DNA of 64,000 nt, from NCBI GenBank assembly GCA_963827165.1, contig CAWGZR010000004.1, positions 211,183 through 275,182 on the forward strand. Direction: 5' to 3'. A model generated the notes under the pieces. It had not been told where the DNA came from. It saw only the letters and a list, made by a program, of their open reading frames with translations, and searched no databases. The number at the start of each line of letters is the position of its first letter. The stretch's first letter is position 1. Positions 19,524-58,881 of the stretch are shown piece after piece. Position numbers and translations under genes: made by a program. The DNA is from Candidatus Bathyarchaeota archaeon. GTDB lineage: Archaea; Thermoproteota; Bathyarchaeia; Bathyarchaeales; Bathycorpusculaceae.

Positions 19524-19622
19524 CCACACATAACGTTTTCATCGGGCTGAACAATCTCCAGTTGAGCATGTTGTTTTTCCGAAAAGCCAAAGAAATGGGG
19601 CATAGCGCTTTTCTTAATTTCC

Positions 19623-20831: not shown

Positions 20832-21032
20832 TATTTCACTTCCAATTTTTAATTCAATTAGTTTAGATTAACCCTAATTTGGACCGACTAGACAATAATG
20901 TTCTGATTTTTATCCGCCTATTAAGCTATCGCTAGCTACGCGGCACTAAAAATACGCAAGACCTCTCAGAAAAACTGAGCAAAATCAGCGCTTATGTCAG
21001 AAATTAATAACGCTTACTTCGTCTTTGGGATA

Positions 21033-22373: not shown

Positions 22374-22719
22374 TTTTTAGCCTTTGCAGGTTGGTTTATC
22401 CAGCCATGTATATATAAGACTTTGCGTGATGTGCCGAGACAAGAAGTCATCTAAAGCAATTTTCTTAAAACACAGCCAAAAAACCAATTGCAGATTACTC
22501 CAAACATGAATCTGGCCTTTCCCCTATCCTGGTCTGCTCAACATGATTATGGAGGTTTTTTTGGCGATGTGTTGAGTGTGATTATTTGCTTGTATTTTGA
22601 TGGGAAAACTTCATGGAGATTGGCTTTGATTTTGACTTTCGGGTTTGCGACGCGTTTTTTTCAGAAAGTTTCTTATAGCAGGTTGGATAATCCAACCCAA
22701 CACAAGGGGAATCAAAAGG

Positions 22720-23685
22720 ATGAGAAATAGAAATATCATTTACATCGCAACCGTAATAATAATCGTAGTAATAGCATCAAGCGCTTTCCTCTACATTAAC
22801 CACAAATCACCAAGCCAAACAAGTTCGCAAAAAAACATCACATTACTGGATGATGAAGGTTATACCACCAACCTAACCGCTCCTGCACAAAGAATCGTTT
22901 CATTAGCGCCCAGTTGCACCCAAATCGTCTATGCAATCGGCCAAGGGAGCAAAGTTGTCGGTGTAACAACTTATGACGATTACCCATACAATTTCTCAGC
23001 GTGGGCAGCGGCAGGCAACATGACAATCGACGGCGGCTACGGAACACCAAACATGGAAGCCATAGCGTCACTTCGCCCTGATCTAATACTCACTGACAGT
23101 ATCAATGACGCAAGCCTCCCAAGCCTGAGGAACTTAGGATACAACGTGGTGGTTTTGAACCCAAGCACCATCAGCGGAATATGCAATGACATAACTTTGG
23201 TTGGAACTGCAACAGGCGCCCAAACCCAAGCAAACGCAGTAGCGACAAACATAACAAACACAATCAACGACATATCGGCAAAAATCGCTGGTTTGAAAGA
23301 AGCCCCAATGAAGGTCTTTTATGAAGTCTGGACTCCACCGCTTATGACCGCTGGCTCGACAACTTGGATTAACGACGTCATAAGCAAAGCAGGCGGCGCC
23401 AACATATTTGCCAACGAAACCGACCAGTTCCCAACAGTTGCCTCCGAAACAGTAGTTTCACTTAATCCCGACGCAATATTCTTACCAACCGAAATGGGAC
23501 AAACACCATTCTACGGAAGCGTGTCCCAAGTCGAAGCTCAACCTGGATGGAACACAATCAGCGCAGTTAAAAACAGCCATGTCTACGTAATCGACGGAGA
23601 TTTGTTCTCCGAAGCTGGTCCAAGAGTTGCTGACTGCGTTTACGCCGTCGCCGCTGACTTGTATCCGCAACTTTTCACCTCCTAA
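22720..23685 (+). CDS. btuF: Cobalamin/Fe-siderophore ABC transporter substrate-binding protein
   Basis: RIVSLAPSCTQIVYAIG, VVGVTTYDDYP, PDLIL, W..ISAVKN..VY, GPR. Confidence 0.85.
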   Translation: MRNRNIIYIATVIIIVVIASSAFLYINHKSPSQTSSQKNITLLDDEGYTTNLTAPAQRIVSLAPSCTQIVYAIGQGSKVVGVTTYDDYPYNFSAWAAAGNMTIDGGYGTPNMEAIASLRPDLILTDSINDASLPSLRNLGYNVVVLNPSTISGICNDITLVGTATGAQTQANAVATNITNTINDISAKIAGLKEAPMKVFYEVWTPPLMTAGSTTWINDVISKAGGANIFANETDQFPTVASETVVSLNPDAIFLPTEMGQTPFYGSVSQVEAQPGWNTISAVKNSHVYVIDGDLFSEAGPRVADCVYAVAADLYPQLFTS

Positions 23686-23709
23686 CCTCTTTTTTTGTTG
23701 TGACACATA

Positions 23710-24789
23710 ATGAGCGAAGGCAATATCGAAGGAACATACAGTAAACGTTCATCACGATGGAAAGTAATCTTAGCCGCGCTAGTGTTAGCTCTCGTTTTGA
23801 CCCTTATAGTTTCTCTTAACATAGGTTATGCTTCGATACCTTTTTCTCAAATTCTAGCCATAATAGGCAAGCAAATTCCATTCCTAGGCGCCTCAATAAA
23901 TTCATCTTCAATATCACCCTCTAGCCAAGCAATTATCGTTTTAATTCGTCTGCCACGTGTGCTCGCCGCCGCTCTGGTCGGCGCTGGTTTGGCTGCGGCG
24001 GGTGTAATTTATCAAGGCATTTTCCGAAATCCCATGGCTGACTCATATTTGCTAGGCGCCTCAGCAGGGGCATCGGTGGGTTACTCCATTGCCGTTTTGT
24101 ATGTTTCGTCCGCCTTGACGATTGTAGGTTTGGGCATAGCGCAGACTTTCGCCTTCATTTTTGCCTTGCTGACCGTTTTTCTAGTATTATTCATTTCAAG
24201 AGTCGGACACAGAATTCCCATAACTACCCTGCTGCTTTCCGGTGTGGTTGTGAACATTTTTCTTTTGGCTATGGAAACACTTATGGAGCTTCATTCCGGG
24301 CAAGCACTCACGGGCATAATTGCTTGGCTCGCAGGCGGATTCTCAGATATCGTCTGGCTCCAAGTATACGCAATATTCCCATTCGTCATCATCGGCATAG
24401 CCATAACGTTCTTTTTCACCCGCGACCTAAACATGCTTTCCATGGGAGACGAAACCGCGCAGCATCTTGGAGTGAACACGGAAAAAGTTCGTCAACTCCT
24501 TCTTGTCATAGCTTCTTTGATGACGGCTGCAGCGGTCGCCATAAGCGGTGTCATAGGCTTTGTAGGCTTAATAATTCCGCATATGACTAGGCTGGCGATT
24601 GGACCTGACCATCGCATCCTTCTACCTGCTTCAGCTGTTGTCGGAGCCATGTTCTTGGTGATCTGCGACGCCGTTGCACGAGTTGCCACGGGAGCTTCTG
24701 AATTGCCAGTTGGCGTTATAACTGCCCTTGTCGGAACGCCCTTCTTCATATACCTACTCAGGAGAAGAAAAACAACCTATTCACTTTGA
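23710..24789 (+). CDS. btuC: FecCD/BtuC-family ABC permease
   Basis: IRLPRV, QGIFRNPMAD..LLGASAGA, GVIGFVGLIIPH, ELPVGVITALVGTPFF. Confidence 0.9.
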   Translation: MSEGNIEGTYSKRSSRWKVILAALVLALVLTLIVSLNIGYASIPFSQILAIIGKQIPFLGASINSSSISPSSQAIIVLIRLPRVLAAALVGAGLAAAGVIYQGIFRNPMADSYLLGASAGASVGYSIAVLYVSSALTIVGLGIAQTFAFIFALLTVFLVLFISRVGHRIPITTLLLSGVVVNIFLLAMETLMELHSGQALTGIIAWLAGGFSDIVWLQVYAIFPFVIIGIAITFFFTRDLNMLSMGDETAQHLGVNTEKVRQLLLVIASLMTAAAVAISGVIGFVGLIIPHMTRLAIGPDHRILLPASAVVGAMFLVICDAVARVATGASELPVGVITALVGTPFFIYLLRRRKTTYSL

Positions 24790-24799
24790 GGCGAAAAAA

Positions 24800-26109
24800 A
24801 TGGTGTCACTAAATATCGATGGTGTCGAATGCCGTTACGGCTCAATAAAAATCTTAGAGAACGTCAGCATTTCAGTTAAGGCAGGCGACTTCGTAGGCAT
24901 CCTTGGACCCAACGGCTCCGGAAAATCAACCCTTCTCAAAAGCATAAGCCGAACTCTTAAACCTTCCAAGGGCGCAATCATTCTCAACGACAAGGACATC
25001 TACACTCTAAAAAACATCGAAGTCGCAAAACAGTTGGCTGTGGTTCCGCAAGACAACACCATCAGCTTCAGCTTTACCGCCTTGAGGTTGTTTTGATGGG
25101 GCGCAACCCTCACATGGAAAGGTTCCAGATGGAAACCGAAAGTGACATGGCGATCGCCCGACGAGTTATGAATTTAACGAACACGTGGCATTTAGCGCCC
25201 AGGCCCGTAAACGAGTTAAGCGGCGGTGAGAGGCAACGCGTTATTATTGCCCGGGCGCTGGCGCAGGAGCCTAAAGTTTTGCTTTTGGATGAGCCCCTCA
25301 CTTATCTGGACATCATCAATCAGCTGGAAATCATGGATTTGATCAAGTCGCTTTGTGTAACACAGGGAATCATTGTTATGGCTGTTGTCCATGACCTAAA
25401 CCTTGCCGCACGGTACTGCAACAACGCTTTGCTTCTTAAAAACGGAAAAGTTTATGCCGCCGGACCCATAGATAAAGTGCTAACCAGTGAAAACATAAAG
25501 AGCGTCTTCAATGTGGAAGCCATGGTGAAAAAAAACGCTGTTACCGACTCACTATACATTATTCCACTATCACCTCCAAAATCCTCGCCACCTAGAAACT
25601 GCTCAATTCACATAATAAGCGGTGCAGGAACGGGAACTGTCCTAATGAAAACTCTTCAGGAAGAAGGCTACAACATCACCGCGGGCGTTCTTAACGTCTT
25701 AGACACCGATTTTGAAACCGCCCAATATCTCAATATACCCGTAATAAGTGAAGCCCCATTTTCTCCTATAACCGAAAAAACCCGCAAGCAAACTTCGACA
25801 TAATGAAAAAAGCGGGGTATGATCGTCATAACATCAGTTCCGTTTGGCTACGGCAACCTCTCTAACCTAGAGTCGGCGTTTGAAGCGGTTAAGCAGGGAG
25901 TCACAAATATACGTGATAGAAGAGGAGCCGATGGAAAGCCGAGACTTCACAGGCGGAAAAGCCACCGCATTGATCGAAGAGCTCAAGAAACAGGCGCCGT
26001 TTTCATCAAACACGCATCCGAACTGCCAGCCTTGGTCAATGCAAAACATGACTTAATGAACTGCAGAAAAACGGGCACAAAGAGGTCCCAGGTCACACAA
26101 AAAAAATAA
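24800..26109 (+). CDS. BtuD/FecE-like ABC ATP-binding protein with a C-terminal extension (at least two frameshifts)
   Basis: GPNGSGKST (first fragment), LSGGERQR, LLLDEP and HDLNLAA (second fragment), tail in a third fragment. Confidence 0.85.
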
Positions 26110-26154: not shown

Positions 26155-27264
26155 ATGTCCACCCAAAAAAACAGCAAGTTAGTTTTCGGCGCAGAGAAAA
26201 CCGGCAAAAAACTCGATCACTTCATCTGGTCATGCACCCGAGCCTACCCAGTCAAACACGCTTTTTCGTTGGGAGATGGAAAGCCATTGCCTAACGAGTT
26301 AACCACTGCTGAAGCAAAAATGATGCTAAAGAAAGCCGCGGACTTCGGGGTTGATAACATTTTCATTTCTGGGGCGGGTTGGACTGGAGAACCTTTGATG
26401 CGAGAAGACTTCTTTGAACTCATTCATTATGTTGCTGAGCTTGGGATATCGCCCTACGTTAAGGTTACGGGTTGGCATTTCGACCGCAAGGTAGCGAAAG
26501 AACTTGCCGCGGCGAATTGCAAGGCCATTGTCTGCGTAGCAGGTCTCAGAGAAGTCGACGCTAAACTTCGTGGGAAAGGTGCCTTCGACGACAGCTTAAC
26601 GGCGGCGAAGCTCTGCAAAGAATTCAGTATCCCATTCGCGTTAAGTGTCATTAACACAAAGTACGTGGTTGACCAAATTCCCGCGTTAGTTGACCTTGCC
26701 ATCGAGTTGGGAGCACGCGGTTTTCATTTGGCTTCCCTGATTCCTCAGCCCATAGACGTCGAAAACCAGCTCAAAGTACTTTGTCCTCTTGAGCCGACGC
26801 CGACGGAAAAAGAAAAACAACTTGAAGAAATTTATGAGCTCAACAAAAAAGTAAAAGATAAAATCCTAATTGTCCCCTACGAAATGTTCAACAATCGCGT
26901 TTTGAAAACCAAAGAGCCTCAGAGGGAGCTTAAGAGCACCTGCAGCATGTGCGACGACCTGGTCAAAAACGAGTGGCTGGAGGTTTTGGAGGACGGAAAA
27001 GCCTACGCTTGCGCTCCACTCGGCTTAGAGTTTGGCGACATAAGAACCGACAGCATCCAACAAATAATGGATCGCATGCGTGTATCAGACAAGCTCAAGG
27101 TTTTGGCGGACCGATCCAACCTCAAAGGCAAATGCGGCATCTGCCAATTCAAAAATATCTGTGGCGGCTGCAGAGCCCGAGCATACATCTACTCCAAAGA
27201 CCCCCTGAATCAAGATCCTGCATGCGCATATCAGCCGAAAAAGGCACAAACATTGGAAAACTAA
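26155..27264 (+). CDS. Radical SAM/SPASM-family homolog with a degenerate CxxxCxxC motif
   Basis: NELTTAEAK, GEPLMREDF, RGKGAFD and SPASM LKGKCGICQFKNICGGCRARAY..DPAC are present, but the motif position reads WSCTRAYPVKHAF. Confidence 0.8.
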   Translation: MSTQKNSKLVFGAEKTGKKLDHFIWSCTRAYPVKHAFSLGDGKPLPNELTTAEAKMMLKKAADFGVDNIFISGAGWTGEPLMREDFFELIHYVAELGISPYVKVTGWHFDRKVAKELAAANCKAIVCVAGLREVDAKLRGKGAFDDSLTAAKLCKEFSIPFALSVINTKYVVDQIPALVDLAIELGARGFHLASLIPQPIDVENQLKVLCPLEPTPTEKEKQLEEIYELNKKVKDKILIVPYEMFNNRVLKTKEPQRELKSTCSMCDDLVKNEWLEVLEDGKAYACAPLGLEFGDIRTDSIQQIMDRMRVSDKLKVLADRSNLKGKCGICQFKNICGGCRARAYIYSKDPLNQDPACAYQPKKAQTLEN

Positions 27265-27289
27265 AGGTTTTATTAAGCCAGGTGAGACT

Positions 27290-27921
27290 ATGGCAGAAAA
27301 TGTTAACGAAAAATCGCTTGAACTCATAAGGCAGTGCGCATTAGATTTAGGCGCGTTAATGCAAAGGTGATTGGTGCCGAAAAAATCGTTGTTGCCGACC
27401 GCGTTGTGTTTAAATGCCGGCTAGGCTGTGAAAAATATGGAAAAACATTAGCCTGCCCTCCATACGCGCCAACGCCCAGCGAATTTCGAAAAATCGTCAG
27501 CGAATACCACTACGCGCTCTTCATGAAATTCAACTCGCACGCCGAAGGCGACTCTGAACTCATAAAATACCTTGCAAAAGCGGATGATCCCTCCATTTCG
27601 CCAGAGATGAAGGTAAAAGTTGAAGGCTTCTGGCTCGCTTGGAAGGATGACATGAAGCATCTGCTTGAAGTCGTGTTAGAGCTTGAAAAGGCGGCGGCTG
27701 AAAAAGGGTACCTTCTTGCCGTGGGACTGGTCTCGGGCTCATGTCAGCTATGCGAAAAATGCAATGTTCAGAATGGAATCTGTGTGCACCCTTCCAAGAG
27801 ACGTTTCTCCGAAGAAGGCGTTGGAGTCGACGTAAAAGCAACCGCTGAAAACGCAGGCGTAAAATTCACTTTGCCCTTCAACAAAAACCCTGAAACATTT
27901 GCTCTGCTCCTGATTGATTAG
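27290..27921 (+). CDS. DUF2284 predicted metal-binding protein (frameshift near 27355)
   Basis: KCRLGCEKYGKTLACPPYAP, GSCQLCEKC..CVHP..RRFSEEGVGVDV..TA; the true start is probably the ATG at 27290 after GGTGA. Confidence 0.85.
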
Positions 27922-31827: not shown

Positions 31828-32898
31828 ATGGAAAAAATAACAGAAACACCTCTTCACAGGATCTTAGACACAATCTCATCTCACTTAGGCGAACCATTAT
31901 CAATCAACCAACTAACCGAAAAAATCAAAGAAAAATATGGTGCCGCATATTACTCAAATATCTACAAACAAGTCAAAGAATTAGAAAACAAAAGATTACT
32001 AACAACCACTTCCTATGGAAAATCAAGCATAATAAAACCCAATTTCGACAATGAACTAATAATAGAATTATTTGCACAAATGGAAATCGAAAACAAAATA
32101 AATTTCCTAAAGGATAAGAACGAATTATTAATTGTCCTATCAAGCATGAACAAATCTCTGGATGACATTTGCTCAATAAAGTCAATAACCTCAATAAATC
32201 CTGAAAAGAATTCTGAACTCAACAGATTGGAACTGCTCTTTCTCTTAAGAAAAACCATTGACTACAAAGATGCGACATTTGAGCTTTATAACAAAATGAG
32301 ACAATTACGGGACCAACATAACTTGAAGATTGATAGCCTTATTTTAAACGAGGATGATTTTTCTTCATTGATAAGATCAAATGAAATAAATCCCTTAAGG
32401 GAAGCTTTTGCCAAAGAGATAACCATCTTCTGTCCACAGGCATTCTGGAGTCAAATTAAGAAGATCTCGGAAGAATCCGAAATCAAAACAATAGACGCAG
32501 AGACAAAACCTAACCACATTTCAGAAACAGACCTAATTTACAACCTCAACCGATTTGGCTACAAAGAATTTGGCAACAAAATATCCCAAGCTAACAAGTA
32601 CTGCATTGAATTCATAATCACAAGTTTACTACTTTCAGATGATGCAAGAAGATTAGAGGCCATCCCAATAATTCTCGCAAAAAATAACTATCGCAGTAAT
32701 TTATTGGCATTTCTTTGCCAAAAGTACAGGATTTCGGGCAAACTCTTGGGACTGCTGATAAGTCTCCAAAACATTAAACCAAACGATAAAATTAGGGACA
32801 CAATTAGTCTTTTAGAGATTCTCAAAGAGGAGCAAGAAACACCAGCTGACGAAGAGAGCATAAGGCGAAATATGAGGTTATATAATGCCATTAGATAA
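31828..32898 (+). CDS. HTH plus degenerate nucleotidyltransferase-like protein (AbiEi-like antitoxin suspected)
   Basis: N-terminal wHTH (PLSINQLTEKI..YYSNIYKQVKELE) and C-terminal RRLEAIPIILAKN..IRRNMRLYNA; AT-rich. Confidence 0.55.
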   Translation: MEKITETPLHRILDTISSHLGEPLSINQLTEKIKEKYGAAYYSNIYKQVKELENKRLLTTTSYGKSSIIKPNFDNELIIELFAQMEIENKINFLKDKNELLIVLSSMNKSLDDICSIKSITSINPEKNSELNRLELLFLLRKTIDYKDATFELYNKMRQLRDQHNLKIDSLILNEDDFSSLIRSNEINPLREAFAKEITIFCPQAFWSQIKKISEESEIKTIDAETKPNHISETDLIYNLNRFGYKEFGNKISQANKYCIEFIITSLLLSDDARRLEAIPIILAKNNYRSNLLAFLCQKYRISGKLLGLLISLQNIKPNDKIRDTISLLEILKEEQETPADEESIRRNMRLYNAIR

Positions 32899-35854: not shown

Positions 35855-36967
35855 CTAAAGGGTTTTCACTTTGCATATTTCGTATACAATCAAATGCGGA
35901 TACTTCAAGTAAAACTTGTACAAATGCGGATTTTCTTTTTTCAATTCAACACTTGGATCCGGCTCGTAAATCCTACAAATAGCCAAGTGATTCTCGCAAA
36001 GAGCGCTTGTCATTTCATCAAGAGTAAACCAATGATGCGGATTATCCTTAGCCTTATACTCTATCCTGTAATTAGGCAAACGACCATGAAAACGTCCTTC
36101 CTTTGAATGCGTTATTCCTTTGGCAAGTTGACCAAAAAACGGATGCGCCTCAATAATAAAAAATCGTCCCTGATCCGTCAGAATTCTGCTGATTTCGCTT
36201 AAGGCTTTGGAGAATTCCTGATGGTTATGTGTTTTTCTGCAATAGTCAAAACTCACAACTGTATCTATCGCCACAACATAGTCAAAGTGTTTGCAAGGCA
36301 CGTTTTTTGCGAAATCAAGAAAATCCCCCTGAAAAAATTCTTCGTTATCGAGACATAGCCTTTGTTTGAGATCGTTTGCTTTTTCAATTAGAAATGCGCT
36401 TCTATCAACACCGGTCACGTGTGCTCCCAGTTTAGCCAGAATCGTGGAATAATATCCTGGGCCACATCCAAAGTCGAAGATCCTCTTTCCAGCTATTTTT
36501 TCTTTGGTGAAAAATTGTGTTACAAAATTTTCTACGCAATATTTGTAGTAGGTTCGGCTTTCAGGTCGTATATCTGAAACGTCGTCATAAAATTTCTTTT
36601 TAAACCATTTTTCCATAATTCCCTGCGAATCATCATCTTCCTTCAAAGCTTTGGGAATTGCTGCTTTCATTGCTTTGTTAACCGCTGAAACCACCATAGC
36701 TTCGACGTTTTGCATGGATCCATTTGAAGCATCATTGCCAATGATTTTTTCGCCAAATTCTGAGTTTAGCCATTCTTTGTATTGGGGCAACGTTTTTTCT
36801 ATGACTTCATGGATTGTTGACTGCAGTCTTGCATAATCTTCTGGATCCAATTTTTCGTAAAGCTGAACTTTTTCTGAAGGTGCATTGTGGTGTTGATTTT
36901 GCTTTTCGGTTATTGCAGGCCTTTTAGGGAGGGGTTTAGTGTTTGGTTTATTTTTTGGCAAAAACAA
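35855..36967 (-). CDS. Class I SAM-dependent methyltransferase with an N-terminal precursor-like scaffold domain
   Basis: IFDFGCGPG, GVDRS, FDYVVA. Residues ~38-109 align with the leader and follower of the 38735-39160 peptide. The likely start is the TTG at 36961. Confidence 0.9.
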   Translation of the reverse strand: MFLPKNKPNTKPLPKRPAITEKQNQHHNAPSEKVQLYEKLDPEDYARLQSTIHEVIEKTLPQYKEWLNSEFGEKIIGNDASNGSMQNVEAMVVSAVNKAMKAAIPKALKEDDDSQGIMEKWFKKKFYDDVSDIRPESRTYYKYCVENFVTQFFTKEKIAGKRIFDFGCGPGYYSTILAKLGAHVTGVDRSAFLIEKANDLKQRLCLDNEEFFQGDFLDFAKNVPCKHFDYVVAIDTVVSFDYCRKTHNHQEFSKALSEISRILTDQGRFFIIEAHPFFGQLAKGITHSKEGRFHGRLPNYRIEYKAKDNPHHWFTLDEMTSALCENHLAICRIYEPDPSVELKKENPHLYKFYLKYPHLIVYEICKVKTL

Positions 36968-37026: not shown

Positions 37027-38613
37027 TCAATAATATGGAACGATTATTTTTATAGGATAATTTCTTTTCGAGCTTGCCGTTTTTCCCATGCTTAATCGGT
37101 TCCACTCCGAACGGAGATTTTCAAATCGGTTGCTATCGGGCAGAGGTGAATAAAAATAACTATAATTATTTCCGGTTTTTTCTTTGCTCAGCTCAATTCC
37201 ATATTCTTGCGGGTTATTGGAAATTTCTGAATCAGGCAAAACCCCAAAACGTGAAATGCTGACTTGATCAATAAATTCTTGGTTTTGCTCCAAGAAACCA
37301 ACGGATTGTTCGAAATCTCTCTGAGTTTCTCCTGGAAAATCTACTATCATGAATGTCAAAACGCGAATGCCATTTTTTGCGGTATCGCGGATCACGTTTT
37401 TAGCCGTTTCTATGTCGTACCCTTTTTTCATTTTACGAAGAATTCTCTGCGACCCAGATTCTATGCCAAACCACAAGCCTATGCAACCCGCCTGCCGCAT
37501 TTTCCCAAGCAACTTGTCATTCATTTCAGAACGAACTCTAGCCATGCCCATCCACTTCATTTCGACGTCTTCTTCAATCAATAAATCACAGAGTTTCTCC
37601 AACGATTTGATATTGCAATTAATCAAACTGTCATTGAAGCGAATAGTAGAAACCCCATATTTTTCTTTGACATATTTGAATTCCGAAACTACGTTTTCCG
37701 GTGACCGCATCCGATACGTATTACCCCATAAACGTTTTTCAACACAAAAAACACAATCACCAATACAACCTCTAGATCCGACAACCGGCATTATAGGCAC
37801 CCCAAACTTATTCTGAGGATACTCCCACAACGGCAAATCATCGTAATCCGGAAAAGGCAAATCGTCAAGAGATTTAATTAAAGGTCGATCCGCGTTAGAA
37901 ATAATTTTGCCGTTCTCTCTGTAGGAAATTCCTGCGATTCCCCTTAATGATTCTAAACTTCCGTTATAGGAAATAGCTACTTCAGAGATTGTCGATTCGC
38001 CCTCCCCTCGAACTATTAAGTCAATTTCGGGGTGGATTGACAGAACTTCTTCCCATGAGGCGAATGCTGGACCGCCCAAAACAGTTAAAATTCTCGGTTG
38101 AATTTTCTTTAATTTGCGTGAGAGAAGTACACTCCAGAGCAAACCAGTGTGGGTTATTACATGAAATCCCACAATACTTTGACTTTTGGTATCGGCGGCA
38201 ACCTCTAAAAACCAATCATTACAAATTTTCCAAACATCTAACAATGTTGCCTGTTTTGATTCTTCGCTGATAATACCTTTGAACACCGAATTTGAATGGG
38301 GATAACCTAATTTATCAGAAGCCTCTCTTAGCATAATTTCTTCGAAAAGTTTTTGGCCATCTTGAATTGTTGAATAAATTTCTGCCTCGGGAACCTTTGT
38401 CCATTTCGCCTTTCCCTTGTTATCGCTTTCTCTTAAGATTTTTGCAGGGTTGATTTCGAGTCCTTGATGGAAAAGAGTCAAGTTAAAAGATTTAATGTTT
38501 AGATCAAAGGTGCTTACCTTTTGTTTGCTTGCCTTTAAGGTGCTTGTCAAGTATGGAATTGCAGGATAAGGAACCAAGGATGAAACTGGCGGGATGCAAA
38601 GAAAAACAGGCAA
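37027..38613 (-). CDS. B12-binding radical SAM protein (class B methylase-like)
   Basis: Cobalamin-binding domain (IVGF..LGGP..IDLIVRGEGE), LDDLPFPDY, SRGCIGDCVFC, GIESGSQRIL, FPGET. Confidence 0.93.
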   Translation of the reverse strand: MPVFLCIPPVSSLVPYPAIPYLTSTLKASKQKVSTFDLNIKSFNLTLFHQGLEINPAKILRESDNKGKAKWTKVPEAEIYSTIQDGQKLFEEIMLREASDKLGYPHSNSVFKGIISEESKQATLLDVWKICNDWFLEVAADTKSQSIVGFHVITHTGLLWSVLLSRKLKKIQPRILTVLGGPAFASWEEVLSIHPEIDLIVRGEGESTISEVAISYNGSLESLRGIAGISYRENGKIISNADRPLIKSLDDLPFPDYDDLPLWEYPQNKFGVPIMPVVGSRGCIGDCVFCVEKRLWGNTYRMRSPENVVSEFKYVKEKYGVSTIRFNDSLINCNIKSLEKLCDLLIEEDVEMKWMGMARVRSEMNDKLLGKMRQAGCIGLWFGIESGSQRILRKMKKGYDIETAKNVIRDTAKNGIRVLTFMIVDFPGETQRDFEQSVGFLEQNQEFIDQVSISRFGVLPDSEISNNPQEYGIELSKEKTGNNYSYFYSPLPDSNRFENLRSEWNRLSMGKTASSKRNYPIKIIVPYY

Positions 38614-38734: not shown

Positions 38735-39160
38735 TTATTCGAATTGATCTTTCAAAGCTTGACGAATTGCGCCTATCATTGCCTCGTTAACAGCATTAAC
38801 AACCATATCGTCCATTTTTCTATTTGGCGTAGGGCAATCGTTACCGCATGAACTGCACAAAGGTGTCGGACAGTCGTTTCCACATGAACTACAAAGCGGC
38901 GTCGGACAATCGTTGCCACATGAACTGCACAAAGGTGTCGGGCAATCATCAGCCGCAATCAAAGAAGTAGCTACCCACTGCTGATATTCCGGTAGAGTTT
39001 TTGCAATGGTATCTCGAATTGTTGACTGAAGTTTTGCATACATCTTAGGATCCAGTTTTTCAACAGGCGGCATTTTTGCTAAGAGTTTGTTTAACCGTAT
39101 CTTTTGTGCTGGGGTCAGTTTTTTTGAGGAAGCGTTAGATGTAGATTTATTTTTTGACAA
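38735..39160 (-). CDS. Putative RiPP precursor with an internal Cys-rich repeated core
   Basis: 141 aa: helical leader, (DCPTPLCSSCGN)x3-DCPTP, helical follower; lies between two radical SAM genes. Confidence 0.85.
   Translation of the reverse strand: MSKNKSTSNASSKKLTPAQKIRLNKLLAKMPPVEKLDPKMYAKLQSTIRDTIAKTLPEYQQWVATSLIAADDCPTPLCSSCGNDCPTPLCSSCGNDCPTPLCSSCGNDCPTPNRKMDDMVVNAVNEAMIGAIRQALKDQFE
38825..38947 (-). repeat. 36-nt coding tandem repeat, 3.4 copies
   Basis: GATTGCCCGACACCTTTGTGCAGTTCATGTGGCAAC / GATTGTCCGACGCCGCTTTGTAGTTCATGTGGAAAC / GACTGTCCGACACCTTTGTGCAGTTCATGCGGTAAC / GATTGCCCTACGCCA. Confidence 0.95.
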
Positions 39161-39195
39161 AAATATCCCTACAATGATGTATTGAGTCGTTTTAT

Positions 39196-40650
39196 TTAAT
39201 GTTTGTTGTGAAGCAAATCCTGAGCAGGATTATTTGGTAGAATTTTTTGAGTTCTGGTTTTTTGAGATTCCATCAGGAAATTGTATGAAATTAGGAGCTT
39301 TAGTATTTCATTTTGAAAAGTGCAGAAGTAGTCCTCTTTAATGCCAAGTTGCCCAGTCTTAACATAAATATCGTATGCGCATCCCCCGCCGCAAATTCCA
39401 ACCGCAGCACACCTCATACAGTCTTTATTCTTAAGCGTGCCCATTTCCAGCCACGTATAAAACAACGGTTCATCCTGAACCTTCAAATCATCTTTAATTG
39501 GAATCTGATACTTTCCCGACGGATAAAACGCATGGCACGGCCCCACTGTCCCAGTTGGCGAAAAAAACAGCAGTTGACCAAACGCCGGGCAATCGTAAAT
39601 ATGGAATATTTCTTTGAAAAAATAATTGGCCCGCCGATTATCAATACGGTCTTCAAACATTTTTAGTTCTTTTGCTTTTAAGTAGGCTCCAAAAAGATGA
39701 TGGGCAAGTTGTTTGGGGTCTGGAACCTCAAATTCACTTGGCTCTTTAAGCCGGGTCAACAAGTTAAAGCCTATGGTTCTGACGCCTAATTTCTGGATAA
39801 ATTCTATTATTTCTTCTGCATGCATATAGTTCTGCTTCGTGATTGTACATGATATTCCCGTGTTTACACCCGCCTCTTTTAGAAGCGCCAACGCTTTGAG
39901 TGCTGCGTAAAAGGTTTCTTTTCCATCCGTGAAAACACGGTTTTTGTCAATGGCAGCCCACCCATCAAGCGACAACCCCACGGTAACATCATGCTGCTTA
40001 AGTTTCTTAGCCATAGCTTCAGTTATTAGGCTTCCATTTGTGACACAAGAAAAAAAGAATTTTCCCTTAGAAGCCGCCTCAAGCTTCTCAATAATATAAA
40101 ACACAATTTCACTATTACTAAACGGCTCACCCCCATAAAATGTGACCCTGTATTCAGGAACTTGCTTTGCCTCGTTAACTATAACATTTATGACTTTATC
40201 AGCCAAATCCTTAGACATCACTGTACTTGGACCTTTGAGAGAGTTCTCTATAAAACAGTAACCGCACCTAAAATTGCAGAAATCGGTAACCAAAATGTAG
40301 GCAAGGTTGGTTTGTGGTTTTTTTCTAAGCAAGCTAGCCGCAACAGTTTCAAAAACTTTTTCCCCATTAAAGCCTTGAGGCACCAAAAATTTTAGTTCCA
40401 TTAACTCCTTAACGTCCTTGCTATGCGCGCCCTTACTCAGATCTGCCAAAACCTTTTCGTATTTTTTGTTGGTTAAGTACACTTTCTTTAGAGTTAAAGA
40501 ATTGAAAAGACACTTCGTCGATTCATCAACATTGAACAAGTGGACAAACGGCGAAAGAACCAATTGAGCAAGCTCTTCGCGGGGCATTTGCACAGAAGGC
40601 TGGTTCTTATTCACAATCGCATTAACCGCCTCAGATCGTTTCTTGCTCAT
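39196..40650 (-). CDS. Radical SAM/SPASM peptide maturase-like enzyme
   Basis: CNFRCGYC, FYGGEP, VTNGSL, GLSLDG; SPASM CPAFG..GPCH..CMRCAAVGICGGGC..YFC; ~110-aa N-terminal extension resembling an RRE. Confidence 0.92.
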   Translation of the reverse strand: MSKKRSEAVNAIVNKNQPSVQMPREELAQLVLSPFVHLFNVDESTKCLFNSLTLKKVYLTNKKYEKVLADLSKGAHSKDVKELMELKFLVPQGFNGEKVFETVAASLLRKKPQTNLAYILVTDFCNFRCGYCFIENSLKGPSTVMSKDLADKVINVIVNEAKQVPEYRVTFYGGEPFSNSEIVFYIIEKLEAASKGKFFFSCVTNGSLITEAMAKKLKQHDVTVGLSLDGWAAIDKNRVFTDGKETFYAALKALALLKEAGVNTGISCTITKQNYMHAEEIIEFIQKLGVRTIGFNLLTRLKEPSEFEVPDPKQLAHHLFGAYLKAKELKMFEDRIDNRRANYFFKEIFHIYDCPAFGQLLFFSPTGTVGPCHAFYPSGKYQIPIKDDLKVQDEPLFYTWLEMGTLKNKDCMRCAAVGICGGGCAYDIYVKTGQLGIKEDYFCTFQNEILKLLISYNFLMESQKTRTQKILPNNPAQDLLHNKH

Positions 40651-42831: not shown

Positions 42832-43572
42832 ATGGTAAATTTGGAGGAGAAAAAAATGAACGATATACTTAGTATTTTTATTGAGGGTGGAACCTTCAGG
42901 ATGTTTGTCTCAGCGATTCAAGCAACAGAGATAGTTGATACTCTTAGAAGTGTTGGGCCGTTCACTGTTTTTGCACCCGACGAGGAAGCGTTTGAAAAAA
43001 TTCCCAAAGGTGAATTAGACAGTTTTCTTAAGGACACGCCAAAGTTAAAGGCAATTCTAATGTATCACATTGTCGCCGGAAAATATACAATTAATGAAAT
43101 CAGCAAAATGAAGACCCTCAAAACAATTCAAGGCCAAGAAGTCAAAATCGACGCACACAAATGGCACCTTCACGTGAACCCAAAAATCAACGACGCACTC
43201 ATCACAAATTACAACCTCGAAGCAGACAACGGCATAATACATGTAATAGACAAAGTGCTTATGCCAAATATGGAGCTAACTTGCCCCGTCTGCGGAATGG
43301 GCTTCATGACCATGGAAGATTTAACTGCTCACACTAAAATGGGCCATGTTGCTGAGAAAGCCATAGAGCCAATGCCGCCCGCTGAAACTATGCCTGCCGG
43401 CGAATTAACCAATGAATCAATGTCTGGCATGTCATCTCAAGAAACACCAATGAAGGGTTTAGAACCTGATCGGGTCAAATGTCCTGATTGTGGAAAAACC
43501 TTCATGAGTCATTCGGAGATGGCACGTCACAGAGATTCAATGCACCATGAAACAAAAGGACACGACGAATGA
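42832..43572 (+). CDS. Fasciclin (FAS1) domain protein with two C2H2-type zinc fingers
   Basis: GPFTVFAPDEEAF, ILMYHIV, ADNGIIHVIDKVLMP; CPVC..HTKMGH and CPDC..HRDSMH. Confidence 0.88.
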   Translation: MVNLEEKKMNDILSIFIEGGTFRMFVSAIQATEIVDTLRSVGPFTVFAPDEEAFEKIPKGELDSFLKDTPKLKAILMYHIVAGKYTINEISKMKTLKTIQGQEVKIDAHKWHLHVNPKINDALITNYNLEADNGIIHVIDKVLMPNMELTCPVCGMGFMTMEDLTAHTKMGHVAEKAIEPMPPAETMPAGELTNESMSGMSSQETPMKGLEPDRVKCPDCGKTFMSHSEMARHRDSMHHETKGHDE

Positions 43573-50779: not shown

Positions 50780-51571
50780 GTGCCTGTTGAAATCAGCTTA
50801 GAAATGTATGCTGAGAAGCCCCTGGAGTTGCCGTTTTTTACGGGCCATATCGCAAGGGGGTTGCTGTTGCATTTCATTCGGCAGGTTGATCCTTCCGTTT
50901 CTGGCTTGCTGCATGAGCTTAATGTGTCTAAGCCGTATAGTGTGACGCCTCTGCGGTTCAGAAGCAGCAGCCGCAATGATGAGGGTTACGTTTTGGATCC
51001 TCTGTTCCCCTGCAAAGTTGGTTTTAGGTTTTTGAAAGACGAGTACTCAACCTATCTGCTTAACTTCTTTCAGAAACAAAATACAGCGTTGATTTTTGAC
51101 ACAACTTTCCAAATTGCCTCAATGAGCATAAACTGCAAGACCTACGCCGATTTGGAAAAAGAAGCACAAGCGGTTGACAGGTTCACGCTGGATTTTAGAA
51201 CGCCCACGTATCTGGCGAATCTCAATAGCAGTTACCACTGGATGTTTCCCGACCCCGTAAAAGTATTCTGTAGCTTGATGCGGTGCTGGAACCAGTTCAG
51301 CGACGAACGCCGCTTCACCAAAGAAGAGTATGTAGCCTACAAGGACTGGCTTAGTAAAAATGTGGGCGTGAGCCGCTACGAGTTGCAGACTCGGCTAACA
51401 GTAATGCGGAACAAGAAAGCCACAGGCTTCACCGGCACCGTAACCTACGAATTAGGCGACAAAGAAAACCCCTACAACAAAACCACCCATATGCTCGCAC
51501 ACTACGCCGAATACGCCAACATAGGCGGAAACAAAACAGCAGCATACGGAATGGTGCGATTTACAATTTAG
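50780..51571 (+). CDS. cas6: CRISPR endoribonuclease Cas6
   Basis: KPYSVTPL, FRTPT, GFTGTVTY and the C-terminal G-loop NIGGNKTAAYGMV. Confidence 0.93.
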   Translation: MPVEISLEMYAEKPLELPFFTGHIARGLLLHFIRQVDPSVSGLLHELNVSKPYSVTPLRFRSSSRNDEGYVLDPLFPCKVGFRFLKDEYSTYLLNFFQKQNTALIFDTTFQIASMSINCKTYADLEKEAQAVDRFTLDFRTPTYLANLNSSYHWMFPDPVKVFCSLMRCWNQFSDERRFTKEEYVAYKDWLSKNVGVSRYELQTRLTVMRNKKATGFTGTVTYELGDKENPYNKTTHMLAHYAEYANIGGNKTAAYGMVRFTI

Positions 51572-51715
51572 ATCAAAAGTTATTAAACTAAAGTCTATCT
51601 ACCTTTTCGATTTTTTTCCAAAATTAGATATTATGCGTCCCGTTATACTTGAAACTAAGCTTTATCAAATGGGTCCAAAAAGTTGTCGTCACAAAAGTTC
51701 AAAACAACTATTTTC

Positions 51716-53461
51716 TTAACCATAATTTTCGAGTGCCACTTTCGTTCCGTCTTTTAACATCACAATTTCAGGAACGATTATTCGTTTTAAATCTATGCTA
51801 AGGAGTTCTTGCAGTAGCCACCTATGATTCTTATTCAATAGCCCAAGATTTTCTATTCGTCGCCATTTTTCTAAAATTTCTTGTTTTAATTGTTCTGTAA
51901 ACTTGTAGAAGTCATAAGGTACTTTTTGGTAGATCAACGAATGAACCATATTTAGTTCTGATGGTGCTAAGAGTTCTATGTAATTCTGATTAATGGCAAC
52001 ATCGTAGTTGTTTAACGAGTGCAAAAGATCATATGAAGTAAAGGTCCAGTCTTCACCACGTTGGTATCTTATTTTAGCCGATACAGATTGCCCTCTTAAA
52101 AGGGATAGCCCTGCTTTGTAGTCTTCTAAAAAGGTCATTAGCGAATCCAACTCTTTATTACTCGTAATTCCACAAGCACTCAATTTTCCTTTTGCACTAT
52201 CTATTTCTTTGAGGAAGGCATAGTATTTCTTCCAATTAATTGCGAAAAAAATTTGGTTGAGGAAATCAAAATGTTTCCTATAGGTGCCAAGTACTAAATT
52301 TGCTCTGAATTCTAACAGAAACCTGAGCGTTCTTTCAGATAATTTTCTTTCTAAGAAATAATCTCTGATTGTTTCAATGAATTCGAGATAGCCTATTTGC
52401 TGATCAAGATTAAAGACTCTTTTAACAAAGATGAATGCGGTACCTTCCTTCTGTCTTGATACTCGACCAAATCTTTGGATGAAGCTCTGTAAATCTGGAG
52501 CAATATCCATTATTATTACATCCAGAGGATAATTAATACCGATTTCACTTTTTGATGTAGAAATTATTACAAGCCTTGTCAGGTCCGCCTTTATTGTTCC
52601 TCTTGTTTCATCCCCAGTATCCTTTGTTATAAATTCACCATACCCTTCAGACACAAGTGAGTTATATAATTCCCGAGCAAATTTATTTGAATTACAGATA
52701 ACCAGTGTTTTTAATTTTTTTTCTATACACGATTTTATTATGATATTCACATTTGCTTTAAATTTTTCATTTGTAACGCATATTTTCGTATCGTATCTAA
52801 CAATCGCACCTTTCTCAATACCTCTTTCCTCCATAATTTTTATTTTGCAAGTAGGCGCCATATCTTGCAAAACACTGATAAACTCAAAAGAAGGTGTAGC
52901 AGACGAAAGGATGACTTTTGCTTTAGAAGAACCCAAAAATAATGCAAGCTGTAAAAGTAAATCAGAAAGTTCCAGTTCCCGGTATATGTGAAATTCATCG
53001 TAAATAATATAATGAAAGTAACTAAAAATTCTCAACAAATCTTCTTCTGGATTAACATAAACATGGTGAAGTACTGCTGAAAGAATGTCTGGATTTGTGA
53101 TTATTACATCATATCGTTGGAAAAAAGCCATCAATTCTCTTGATCTTGAATACCCGCGAATATCACCTAAGCTACTTGAGTCCAGAATAAATGAATTTAC
53201 TCCATGACATTTAAGTTGCCGTTCTTGGTCTGCCATTAGTGCAGTAGTTGGATAGACAAGAAGAACTGGAGGATTTTTCTTGCAGAGGTATTCAAAGCAT
53301 AGAGTTTTTCCCGCTCCAGTTGGAGCTGATAAGAAGATTACATCAGACTTCTCGATATTTTCGATGAAATCTCGCTGGAATTTTCTTATTTTTTGAAAAG
53401 GTAATTCATTGAAAGGATTATCAACTTCGAGCACAGAAAAACCGTTCACTTTTGTCCCCAT
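51716..53461 (-). CDS. cas3: Cas3' helicase (type I-D, no HD domain)
   Basis: APTGAGKT, YPTTAL, ITNPD, YDEFH, SSATP, QRFGRVSR. Confidence 0.9.
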   Translation of the reverse strand: MGTKVNGFSVLEVDNPFNELPFQKIRKFQRDFIENIEKSDVIFLSAPTGAGKTLCFEYLCKKNPPVLLVYPTTALMADQERQLKCHGVNSFILDSSSLGDIRGYSRSRELMAFFQRYDVIITNPDILSAVLHHVYVNPEEDLLRIFSYFHYIIYDEFHIYRELELSDLLLQLALFLGSSKAKVILSSATPSFEFISVLQDMAPTCKIKIMEERGIEKGAIVRYDTKICVTNEKFKANVNIIIKSCIEKKLKTLVICNSNKFARELYNSLVSEGYGEFITKDTGDETRGTIKADLTRLVIISTSKSEIGINYPLDVIIMDIAPDLQSFIQRFGRVSRQKEGTAFIFVKRVFNLDQQIGYLEFIETIRDYFLERKLSERTLRFLLEFRANLVLGTYRKHFDFLNQIFFAINWKKYYAFLKEIDSAKGKLSACGITSNKELDSLMTFLEDYKAGLSLLRGQSVSAKIRYQRGEDWTFTSYDLLHSLNNYDVAINQNYIELLAPSELNMVHSLIYQKVPYDFYKFTEQLKQEILEKWRRIENLGLLNKNHRWLLQELLSIDLKRIIVPEIVMLKDGTKVALENYG

Positions 53462-54141
53462 TTTTTCACTACCAAGGGAAGGATCTCTTTTTCGAAGTAT
53501 TTTAAAGGCACACCATGTATGAAAAAGAGACGATAATCGCCCGATCTCTTTATTGTGGTACCATGTACGAGTAGTTTTTCTCGTGGTATCTTGTAAATCG
53601 TGTCCAACATAAAGTAATTCAGGGTTACATATTCTGGTGGCTTAGTTTTCCTTAATCTGCCCTCGCCATTTTTTCTTATTCCTATATTTACGAGTATTTC
53701 ATCGTCCAGTTTTTCTTCAGAAACAAGCACGCATTGAAACTTGGAACCTATTTCTATACCAACATATTGCCGCACTTGTTTGAAAAATGGGGATTTTGAT
53801 GCAGTCATCAATATTGATGGATACGGGTTCTTTTGAGCGTTTATTTGAATATTTTCTTCTGCCCACAACATGGCACTCCTAAACTCTATCGAGGTATATC
53901 GTAGATTAGTTGCAATAGCATCTGTGGCGAAAATAGGCACTTCCGATAATTCTTGATATTTTGGTGTAGTTGTATCAGCCCCATAGAGAAAGTACTCTTT
54001 GTCTCGTAATCTAAGAGCGTCAGCCAATGCATAAGTCAATGCAGTAGAAGAAATTATTCCCTCTGCACTAATGGTGTTTCCTTCAAATGAAGAAAAGAAA
54101 ACTGGAGAAAAGATTTCTAATTCATATCCTTGAAATAACAT
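53446..54141 (-). CDS. cas5: Cas5d/Csc1
   Basis: PVFFSSFEG..ISSTALTYAL, IGIRKNG; located between cas7 and cas3. Confidence 0.75.
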   Translation of the reverse strand: MLFQGYELEIFSPVFFSSFEGNTISAEGIISSTALTYALADALRLRDKEYFLYGADTTTPKYQELSEVPIFATDAIATNLRYTSIEFRSAMLWAEENIQINAQKNPYPSILMTASKSPFFKQVRQYVGIEIGSKFQCVLVSEEKLDDEILVNIGIRKNGEGRLRKTKPPEYVTLNYFMLDTIYKIPREKLLVHGTTIKRSGDYRLFFIHGVPLKYFEKEILPLVVKKWGQK

Positions 54142-54150
54142 TAATCTCGC

Positions 54151-55251
54151 CTAAGAACCGCCTGGTCGGTTTTGCTCTATAGGCGGAACATAGGCGCTTT
54201 TGCCTTGTTTGGTTAACTCAACCAAACATTCCTTTAGGACTTTCTTGTCATTCTCATTTGTCAAAAGGGCCACATCAATTACAGGTGACATAAGGTTTTT
54301 GAATTCATCCTCTTTTTCGTCCCACATAATTTTCCAAAAAATATTCTTATGGTTATTAACATAAATTTTTACTGCGTTGAGTACTTCCTCACCTGTATAT
54401 TCACTCTGGATTTTAGAGCTAAAATGTTCCTTTATCAATTCACCGCTTGATAAACCAATAGCTGTTTTTGAAAATATTATGCCCAGGACCCTATTTCGAA
54501 TAAGGCCCTTCCTAGTGCTTCTGGCAAAATAGGTCGTAGTATTCAAGATGTTATGAAGAACGTAAAGAAGCATCTCCTTGGTTGGAGCGTCTATTCTCAC
54601 AAAGTGAATCATTTTTGCGGGAGGTTCAATATTTACATGCGTGTACAACCCACGCCCTCTTTCTTCTTCATTCGCATTTTCCGCGCCTACTTTCATCATT
54701 GTTCCAGTTTCATACATTGCATTATGCTGTTCCTTGTTAAGCAAATTGTATGGCTCTAGCGTGTACGTGTACCCTTCAATAACACGAGACTTTATAGCGA
54801 ACGTCTCGTCCTCGGTACCTACTGCGCCATAGGTTACAGTGTCTGGATTAATGGCCGCTTGAAGACCCCCAAAAATTTCATTATAACTATAACTGGATGA
54901 TATTATGTCCCAGTTGTTGTTATTGTCTTGCTTTTGATTCAGTATCCTGCACATTCTCAGCCCAGTTAGTCTTTCGGCAGAAACGAATTTTTCCCCATTT
55001 ATTCTTGCTCTAATAATTTCATTCCAACTATCTTTTCCTTCATTATCTTTGGTGTTGATCCTTGTAACAAATAGTTCAGCTCTTTCTGGGTCAGAGCTTC
55101 TAGCTAAGACCGGATCAACGACTTCTCTTAAAACGATTAAGCACAGCTCGGGCCTTAGCTTTCTGCTCCTGTCAATTTTAGCTGCAAAGTACTCACTTGG
55201 CAATTTTTTCTCAAGTTCTTTCCACGAATCTAATGTTTTTACTTCAACCAT
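54151..55251 (-). CDS. cas7: Cas7d/Csc2
   Basis: LIVLREV, KFVSAERLTG, NPDTVTYGA, KSRV, HNA, ARSTRKG. Confidence 0.85.
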   Translation of the reverse strand: MVEVKTLDSWKELEKKLPSEYFAAKIDRSRKLRPELCLIVLREVVDPVLARSSDPERAELFVTRINTKDNEGKDSWNEIIRARINGEKFVSAERLTGLRMCRILNQKQDNNNNWDIISSSYSYNEIFGGLQAAINPDTVTYGAVGTEDETFAIKSRVIEGYTYTLEPYNLLNKEQHNAMYETGTMMKVGAENANEEERGRGLYTHVNIEPPAKMIHFVRIDAPTKEMLLYVLHNILNTTTYFARSTRKGLIRNRVLGIIFSKTAIGLSSGELIKEHFSSKIQSEYTGEEVLNAVKIYVNNHKNIFWKIMWDEKEDEFKNLMSPVIDVALLTNENDKKVLKECLVELTKQGKSAYVPPIEQNRPGGS

Positions 55252-55258
55252 GTTTGAT

Positions 55259-57751: not shown

Positions 57752-57905
57752 AGTTAATTTCGCAGCCCTGATAGCACCCAGTTACATCAATTCTCTAATA
57801 ATTAATATAATTAACTGGTTTCTATAAACATGTTATCGTTATCAGGACGTTTTTTGGTTTCTTCTCTTTGGATTTTTCCTGTTTGTACCTTTTGGAAAAA
57901 AGAAA

Positions 57906-58568: not shown

Positions 58569-58584
58569 GGCATGACCTCAGACA

Positions 58585-58875: not shown

Positions 58876-58881
58876 TTTGGC

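Follow-up and report, generated by a model that had tools for sequence, protein, structure and literature searches.

To our knowledge, radical S-adenosylmethionine (SAM) modification of whole Cys-rich archaeal proteins has been studied experimentally in one example so far, CrpA (2026). Among related systems, QhpC, the gamma subunit of quinohemoprotein amine dehydrogenase, is a protein subunit rather than a released peptide and receives Cys-to-Asp/Glu thioether bridges from the SPASM enzyme QhpD, while PapB follows a Cys-x3-Asp rule. In the proteusins (polytheonamide), the precursor PoyA is acted on by the B12 radical-SAM C-methyltransferases PoyB/C and the Asn N-methyltransferase PoyE, and in the borosins an OphMA-type methyltransferase is fused to its own substrate. 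In Methanococcus voltae, a SPASM enzyme puts ranthionine links, shown by mass spectrometry for CrpA/CrpB, on a Cys-rich repeat protein, and the C-X-X-Q/D pattern was taken there as a hint that a radical-SAM enzyme forms thioethers (Dieter et al. 2026, PMC13692751). The present analysis concerns a 141-aa Cys-repeat protein encoded in a stretch of 64,000 nucleotides (the window) of a Candidatus Bathyarchaeota archaeon (assembly GCA_963827165.1, contig CAWGZR010000004.1, positions 211,183 to 275,182). We consider it probable that this open reading frame (ORF) is the substrate of a four-gene post-translational modification operon and would receive thioether bridges and methyl groups, probably as a single polycyclic module, a chemistry suggested by the kinship of the enzymes and by the C-x-x-D/Q motif.

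Exact DCPTPLCSSCGN units were found at aa 72-83, 84-95 and 96-107 of the protein, and all 10 Cys fall between aa 73 and aa 109. An earlier note on this DNA had placed every Cys in a core between a leader of about 70 aa and a follower of about 30 aa, and these measure 71 aa and, after a fourth, partial unit that the note did not list (DCPTP, aa 108-112), 29 aa. In their DNA, units 1 and 2 differ at 7 nt in 6 codons, units 1 and 3 at 4 nt in 4 codons, and units 2 and 3 at 8 nt in 7 codons, with 100% of the differences synonymous; the description of three protein-identical 12-aa repeats with only synonymous differences was correct, and its counts of 6 and 4 of 12 codons were exact. Read by codon, the three units require at least 10 separate substitution events. 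With 23 of the 108 possible single-base changes of a DCPTPLCSSCGN unit being synonymous, the chance that 10 of 10 substitutions would be so is roughly 2e-7 if changes are equal and independent. Orthologs at three related loci (L001, L002 and L003) each have three protein-identical units with 4 to 11 synonymous differences, and the unit-2 codon signature ACG CCG CT[TC] ... GGA AAC GAC is common to them and the window, which indicates that the units diverged in DNA before these species split. Since speciation, the units have been kept identical in protein, and the codon data point to a repeat that is old and under selection, as the note had argued; purifying selection acts on both flanks and on the Cys-triad unit. 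Slippage or an assembly artefact was ruled out by the synonymous-only differences together with the ortholog-shared signature. At L009 and L014 the units are identical in DNA (0 nt differences), and at L024 they differ by 0 to 1 nt, so duplication or conversion is still active.

Homologs of the protein start with MFLSKNK, and window positions 39161..39166 read ATA-TTT ahead of the TTG, the canonical ATG being replaced; the TTG may be used as the start, or the ATA may be a sequencing error or variant. No signal peptide-like hydrophobic stretch was seen on reading the N-terminus of the 141-aa sequence. Plus-strand shadow ORFs at the locus were rejected, since the homologs all match the minus-strand frame.

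Of 304 candidates from a word-indexed search, 163 were homologs at E ≤ 0.01, and the unit and Cys counts given here refer to the best 120 of these 163 plus the window protein (121). One protein among the matches listed is assigned to Bathyarchaeia. Units were counted strictly as C-x4-C-x2-C-x3, with some proteins truncated and variant first units such as CPPPTPVC left out; on this basis, 20 of the 121 proteins have one unit, 65 have two, 34 have three, 1 has four and 1 has five. The consensus of the 261 units in the matches listed is C-P-[TV]-[EPQ]-[LVI]-C-S-[SA]-C-x-N-[DQ], with C1, P2, C6 and C9 invariant, S7 present in 243, N11 in 252, and D, Q or E at position 12 in 260. The earlier idea of a thioether acceptor within CGND fits these data, positions 9 to 12 reading C-x-N-[D/Q/E] in nearly all units. 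At the end of the array stands CP(T)P, whose Cys, the terminal one, is present in 119 of the 121 proteins and absent in 2, and the first Cys is absent in 14 and displaced in 5. The Cys count of an array is thereby 3n+1, and one-unit members have exactly four Cys.

Mean pairwise identity among close homologs is 0.75 in the leader helix (aa 34-71), 0.79 in the last unit and 0.61 in the follower. When a profile of the flanks was compared with 1.84 billion representative proteins, only 19 clusters were found at E ≤ 0.001; some of these carry other Cys arrays within the same flanks (CPTPICDCNTCPAPVCDCTKCPTP, CQTQICDCNKCPTQ, CMECDCDCTNCSSCGSCGSCIC), and one is a Cys-poor free form. At L033, CPTPICDCNT (twice), CPTPVCDCNK and CPTP stand in substrate flanks directly after a fragment of the orthologous SPASM gene, and a divergent class of substrates (class 2) has an FGRKVV linker and a basic C-terminal tail. 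Of the variation that the earlier note had proposed to look for in homologs, the unit number does range from 1 to 5 and distant members do place other Cys units in conserved flanks, but the core is not hypervariable among close homologs.

The substrate had 0 matches in Pfam and NCBIfam (the latter at E ≤ 0.01) and no usable match in the ESM Atlas. The profile of the flank scaffold gave only noise against the PDB, the best hit (E 0.009) being a designed repeat protein, and scaffold members scanned singly against Pfam likewise gave only noise. No ferredoxin or metallothionein was matched by the substrate in Pfam or NCBIfam, or by the scaffold profile in the PDB below E 0.009. Current family libraries do not detect the family, and literature searches found no published paper on it. 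Most likely it has not been described previously and is a new case among radical-SAM-modified Cys-rich ribosomal products.

The operon consists of four co-directional minus-strand genes, in the order SPASM radical-SAM enzyme, substrate, B12-type radical-SAM enzyme and class I methyltransferase (Table 1). A genome scan identified 30 related loci, 29 in Bathyarchaeota metagenome-assembled genomes (MAGs) and one on a 10-kb contig binned as Sulfotelmatobacter. A tblastn search of these 30 loci with the window proteins recovered the SPASM gene at near full length in 24 and as fragments in a further 2; the B12 gene was found in 21 loci and the methyltransferase in 23, on the substrate's strand and in the window's order throughout. 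All-against-all ORF clustering of 31 loci, with antisense shadow ORFs within the B12 gene set aside (one cluster, 21 loci), left only the scaffold (31 loci), SPASM (26) and B12 (22) families in more than 8 loci, and no conserved protease, exporter/transporter or regulator was found among the clusters. The earlier note had stated beforehand that homologs with invariant cores and no link to modifying enzymes would speak against its proposal; in both analyses the link was conserved. In 8 loci the B12 gene and the methyltransferase are separated by a second substrate gene. Apparent frameshifts, presumably assembly errors, interrupt many of the genes in these MAGs. Five orphan substrate genes (L013, L022, L024, L025 and L027) have unrelated neighbours, and each of the MAGs concerned also has a full cluster. 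At L026, L038 and L039, class-2 substrates are paired with a SPASM gene alone (the 12 kb of L039 contain neither a B12 gene nor a methyltransferase), and this pairing points to the SPASM enzyme as the core partner.

Some of these loci have features of their own. L026 (DATGZD010000010.1), the 10-kb contig binned as the bacterium Candidatus Sulfotelmatobacter, has a class-2 substrate gene together with two SPASM genes, of which one is 74% identical to the archaeal enzyme of the window; mis-binning is more likely here than transfer. At L025:753-4907 and L039:883-5064, class-2 substrates adjoin a gene for a product of about 1390 aa that includes a pro-kumamolisin (S53 protease) activation domain, and it could be a processing protease or mere shared synteny of close relatives. 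In the window, a 356-aa protein with no Pfam match (31828..32898) is encoded 3 kb from the operon, and a 52%-identical homolog lies at L024:9530-10582, 1 kb downstream of the orphan class-2 substrate gene; as this was seen in 1 of 30 loci, the association may be due to chance.

The SPASM enzyme scored 79.2 bits on PF04055 (cut-off 29.5), placing it in the radical-SAM superfamily, and has the cluster motif C125-x3-C129-x2-C132. SPASM domains hold two auxiliary clusters on the 7-Cys pattern CX9-15GX4C ... CX2CX5CX3C ... C. The corresponding residues in the window enzyme are C354..G-x4-C372 (C354-x17-C372), C411-x2-C-x5-C-x3-C424 and C443, with a first spacer of 17 residues against the usual 9-15, and when it is aligned over its full length to models of SPASM maturases, the match extends to profile position 450 of 458. 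The top NCBIfam matches were the maturases of Cys-containing peptides FibroRumin, PapB, CefB, QhpD and SCIFF, all below their cut-offs: 184.7 bits of 400 for the FibroRumin maturase (TIGR04136), 144.1 of 340 for the PapB family (NF047865), 109 of 453 for QhpD (2.3e-31) and 100.8 of 425 for the SCIFF maturase (TIGR03974), with no SCIFF precursor model matched by the substrate. The CrpC family (TIGR04463) gave 91 bits (cut-off 525) and the ACGX system (TIGR04340) 35.7 bits (cut-off 400; G000:C4:250936-251472, inside the SPASM gene). The nearest solved structure was that of CteB, which forms thioethers (5wgg, 3.7e-23). Orthologs of the enzyme are at least 67% identical, the next group 43 to 48% (some fused to GNAT), and the remainder at most 37%. 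Three SPASM enzymes (P0194, P0196 and P0226; 584 to 595 aa, 36 to 48% identical to that of the window) have a fused GNAT acetyltransferase domain and may belong to a sister system with another tailoring step.

The second radical-SAM enzyme of the operon scored 68.4 bits on PF04055 and has the motif C283-x3-C287-x2-C290. Its NCBIfam matches, ApyD (164.8 bits, cut-off 750) and the C-methyltransferase of peptides made by ribosomes and modified after translation (RiPPs; TIGR03975, 155.9 bits, cut-off 281.85), were both below cut-off. About 11 kb from this B12-type gene, a corrinoid salvage/uptake set was noted at window positions 17007..25803 (Table 1).

The methyltransferase has motif I (IFDFGCGPG) at aa 163, in its catalytic part (aa 116-370), for which no specific NCBIfam or PDB relative was found; a homolog search with this part, restricted to shorter proteins (the 203-647 aa range was not searched), returned just fragments of the same orthologs. 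Its N-terminal domain aligned to the substrate by BLASTP with a 41-residue gap across the Cys array, and the N-terminus MFLPKNK is also common to the substrate family. Where the substrate has its array, the N-domain has the loop GNDASNGSMQN in the window and GNDCSNGSLQN, ADDCSNDCPTLIK (L030) or NDDCSSDCPTSIK (L041) elsewhere, the last three variants being relics of a Cys unit. All 16 sampled N-domains group together (support 92/82) in an unrooted tree built from 25 scaffold sequences, a topology that fits a single old duplication and fusion. The window genome has exactly two scaffold copies, the substrate and this N-domain. From the alignment, the N-domain is a decayed, Cys-poor copy of the substrate flanks, and its presence on the methyltransferase gives indirect support to the flanks forming one unit.

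The following mechanism is proposed. In each unit, Cys thiols would be converted by the SPASM enzyme to intramolecular thioether bridges, the likeliest link running from Cys9 to the Asp/Gln three residues further (C-x-N-[D/Q]). Links may also reach over the boundary of a unit to the Cys-Pro that follows; this would account for the Cys count of 3n+1 and for the terminal CPTP being always retained. The B12 enzyme would add C-methyl groups and the class I enzyme an O-, N- or S-methyl group, for which the nearly invariant Asn11 is a candidate site. Leader and follower would act as one recognition or scaffold module, and the methyltransferase could join the same complex via its own copy of that module, either pairing with the substrate flanks or taking the radical-SAM docking site. 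The product would most likely remain a single polycyclic array carried by an intracellular mini-protein or large peptide, with an end use that may be metal binding, redox chemistry or a structural role. For a RiPP in the strict sense, which requires leader-guided modification and leader removal, the gene context fits the modification, with no conserved protease in the 31 loci and no RiPP recognition element (RRE) by Pfam. Taken together, a protein-sized RiPP-like product can tentatively be envisaged, in which the flank module displays tandem thioether-stapled, methylated triads, the methyltransferase is recruited via a fossil copy of the module, and the array of 1 to 5 units serves as an intracellular tunable metal/redox element rather than a secreted antibiotic; this whole picture is a possibility well short of even chances.

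Several results weigh against the substrate reading. All enzyme assignments rest on matches below curated cut-offs, the B12-binding domain PF02310 reached 30.7 bits, just below its cut-off of 32.1, the Pfam SPASM domain PF13186 was not called in the window enzyme at E ≤ 0.01, and neither an RRE nor PqqD was detected in its N-terminus (Pfam, E ≤ 10). The core is conserved like its flanks (0.79 against 0.75 and 0.61), which sets it apart from the cores of most RiPP natural products, and C-x-x-D/Q is missing from the CDC-type units found in distant members. The units, C-x2-C-x3-C-P, resemble the end of the ferredoxin motif CxxCxxCxxxCP, and a metal site would be just as compatible with the conserved core and the dense CxxC/CxC patterns. 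For neither leader nor follower did the helical hydrophobic moment exceed that of shuffles (fractions 0.10 and 0.23). An AlphaFold2 (AF2) model of the substrate (30-row alignment) had a mean pLDDT (predicted score in the local distance difference test) of 52, with the core below 50, and was too weak for a fold search; that of the methyltransferase (16-row alignment) had a mean of 53 and was unusable. Helices were predicted in the substrate at 17-29, 38-71 (pLDDT ∼60-70) and 114-139, but these low-confidence models show neither hairpin nor docking, and the modified loop on a helical hairpin put forward in the earlier note stays unconfirmed.

The metal alternative is one that we judge rather unlikely. 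Here the triads (C-x4-C-x2-C-x3-C-P) would ligate Fe-S clusters or soft metals in a mini-protein serving the radical-SAM enzymes as their own electron donor or cluster/metal carrier, or as a metallothionein-like store, and the true substrate of the enzymes would be elsewhere. The equal conservation of core and flanks, the strict Cys spacing in the 261 units and the likeness to the CxxCxxxCP tail of ferredoxins are consistent with this, as are the one-unit members with exactly four Cys; however, arrays of 1 to 5 units with a dispensable first Cys fit a fixed cluster site poorly. The units are rich in Pro, Ser, Gly and Asn and contain a single hydrophobic residue, no fold is predicted for them by AF2, and neither ferredoxin nor metallothionein families came up in the searches of Pfam and NCBIfam. 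In distant members, dense CxC/CxxC patterns are retained but the putative acceptor residues are not, which favours metal; the close association with a SPASM enzyme that has modifiers of Cys-rich peptides among its relatives, together with the minimal two-gene form of substrate and SPASM gene, points to a substrate role. A metal-related role is suspected even for the modified protein in the CrpA paper (PMC13692751), and both roles could hold in sequence, modification coming first and metal binding after.

A multi-core RiPP precursor, one of the two forms suggested by the earlier note, is in our estimate unlikely. An unlinked protease would cut between units to release n identical macrocycles (12-mers, or 10-mers in the CDC type), the unit number setting the yield. 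Such a precursor would be in keeping with tandem identical units numbering 1 to 5, with the very recent unit duplication or conversion seen as 0 nt differences at L009 and L014, and with a long leader accompanied by conserved modifying enzymes; a possible protease is encoded by the S53 pro-kumamolisin-like 1390-aa gene beside class-2 substrates at L025 and L039. Yet the units abut with no spacer or recognition sequence, the extra CPTP always ends the array (3n+1 Cys), which suggests links across unit borders, and neither a protease nor a transporter is conserved in the 31 loci. The conserved 29-aa follower would be wasted, and the substrate N-terminus is not signal peptide-like. The abutting units, the 3n+1 Cys count and the lack of a conserved protease or exporter make one continuous array likelier than three free 12-mers, so the release of separate peptides is disfavoured.

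The SPASM clade includes PqqE/MftC-type enzymes, and known cofactor precursors are short with a single C-terminal core. A precursor of a peptide-derived cofactor on the logic of PQQ or mycofactocin, in which a few residues per unit would be cross-linked, methylated and excised as a small redox-active molecule and the conserved core would reflect a fixed product, could draw on that clade, on QhpD among the SPASM enzyme matches, and on an intracellular-looking precursor with a conserved core, SPASM and tailoring enzymes and no exporter, but is very improbable given 1 to 5 internal units with a conserved follower, no peptidase or other excision enzyme conserved in the 31 loci, and a patchy presence (22 of 120 genomes of one genus) that is odd for a core cofactor.

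The scaffold profile matched 22 of the 120 genomes searched from the window's genus, its own included, and 10 of 73 among those of high quality, with absence in incomplete genomes being no proof of absence; of 300 further genomes sampled class-wide, none had a match. The family has a narrow and patchy distribution, the operon being confined to part of one Bathyarchaeial genus. The host lineage is uncultured, from soil and peat, and its secondary chemistry is almost unknown.

Elsewhere in the window, a radical-SAM gene followed by a DUF2284 predicted metal-binding protein (26155..27921) forms a second, unrelated radical-SAM pair. A 246-aa protein with a fasciclin domain and C2H2 zinc fingers is encoded at 42832..43572, and near the operon at L005 there is a copy with 64% identity. 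Type I CRISPR-Cas genes extend over 50780..60836 (Cas6, Cas3-like helicase, Csc2, Cas4, Cas1 and Csa1); the Cas1 ORF (245 aa) aligns to profile positions 100-283 only and may be truncated or frameshifted.

Table 1. Features of the predicted modification operon and of the corrinoid set, in window coordinates.
Feature	Coordinates	Strand	Remarks
Cys-repeat protein, predicted substrate	38735..39160	minus	141 aa, TTG start; 163 homologs at E ≤ 0.01
Leader, aa 1-71 (from TTG)	38948..39160	minus	Lys/Ser-rich basic tail, then conserved helix MPxIEKLDPxxYAKLQSTIxDxxAKTLPEYQQW (alignment)
Three tandem 12-aa units DCPTPLCSSCGN, aa 72-107	38840..38947	minus	261-unit consensus; ortholog-shared synonymous signature
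Terminal partial unit DCPTP, aa 108-112	38825..38839	minus	Source of tenth Cys
Follower, aa 113-141 and stop	38735..38824	minus	Conserved helix DDxVVNAVNEAMxGAIRQALKxQF (alignment)
Radical-SAM/SPASM enzyme, 484 aa, predicted thioether-forming maturase	39196..40650	minus	Pfam Radical_SAM 5.3e-22
B12-binding-domain radical-SAM enzyme, 528 aa, predicted C-methyltransferase	37027..38613	minus	Pfam Radical_SAM 1.1e-18
Class I methyltransferase, whole gene	35855..36967	minus
Methyltransferase N-terminal 115 aa, Cys-free paralog of substrate leader and follower	36623..36967	minus	BLASTP 6e-15
Class I SAM-dependent methyltransferase catalytic part, aa 116-370	35855..36622	minus	Pfam Methyltransf_31 2.2e-19 and relatives
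CbiZ	17007..18128		Corrinoid set
HemN-like radical-SAM gene	18234..19523		Corrinoid set
Periplasmic-binding protein	22645..23685		Corrinoid set
FecCD permease	23710..24789		Corrinoid set
ABC ATPase	25093..25803		Corrinoid set

Compared with known systems, the operon shares features with several and agrees fully with none. Like the ranthipeptides/SCIFF (CteA/CteB thermocellin; PapA/PapB freyrasin), it combines a Cys-rich core with a SPASM enzyme predicted to modify it, with CteB as the closest solved structure, PapB and SCIFF maturase models among the top matches, and a putative Asp/Gln acceptor a few residues after the Cys; it differs in the sub-cut-off scores (144.1 of 340 and 100.8 of 425), in a substrate that matches no precursor model, and in its much longer leader, conserved follower, tandem identical units and archaeal host. 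With QhpC/QhpD it would share a modified protein subunit in place of a released peptide, and QhpD is matched at 2.3e-31, whereas the score is 109 bits against 453, dehydrogenase partner genes are lacking, the substrate is built as a repeat array, and the operon includes a B12 enzyme and a methyltransferase. As in the proteusins, there is a very long leader, a B12 radical-SAM enzyme and a class I methyltransferase would act on one substrate, and a conserved Asn offers a possible N-methylation site; here, however, no NHLP/Nif11-type leader was matched, the core is Cys-rich, a SPASM enzyme takes the epimerase's place and there is no protease. The ACGX cassettes (TIGR04340/TIGR04341) also join a Cys-rich peptide, a SPASM enzyme and a methyltransferase, but TIGR04340 scored 35.7 of 400, the substrate here is three times longer with helical flanks, and a B12 enzyme is present. 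Borosins likewise have a methyltransferase and precursor-derived sequence in one polypeptide; here the precursor-like part is N-terminal and has lost the Cys array, and a separate intact substrate gene exists, so that the N-domain looks like a docking or mimic domain and not a self-substrate.

The closest precedent is CrpA/CrpC of Methanococcus voltae (PMC13692751). Both systems have an archaeal Cys-rich tandem-repeat protein beside a three-cluster SPASM radical-SAM enzyme (predicted as such here), C-X-X-Q/D motifs (here C9-x-N-[D/Q]), and a product that is, or here is predicted to be, a modified protein rather than a short peptide. In both, the recognition region at the N-terminus of the substrate recurs in a second gene product (CrpB in M. 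voltae, the methyltransferase with its N-domain in the window), the protease and exporter are unassigned, and a metal role is suspected. The units here are 12 aa repeated 1 to 5 times, internal, between a leader and a conserved follower, whereas those described for CrpA are 17 aa repeated 10 times and C-terminal; a B12-type radical-SAM enzyme and a methyltransferase are additional members of the operon here, the protein sharing the recognition region is an enzyme, unlike CrpB, and the SPASM enzyme scored 91 bits on TIGR04463 against a cut-off of 525. Neither "Bathyarchae" nor "CSSCGND" occurs in the text and three supplement files of that paper. If the proposed modification is correct, the family would be a second, unrelated case of a radical-SAM-modified whole Cys-rich archaeal protein, set apart from CrpA by its internal core, conserved follower, two further tailoring enzymes and one enzyme with a decayed substrate copy. 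Should that copy be a docking device, it would represent a simple natural form of substrate recruitment that could be borrowed for engineering.

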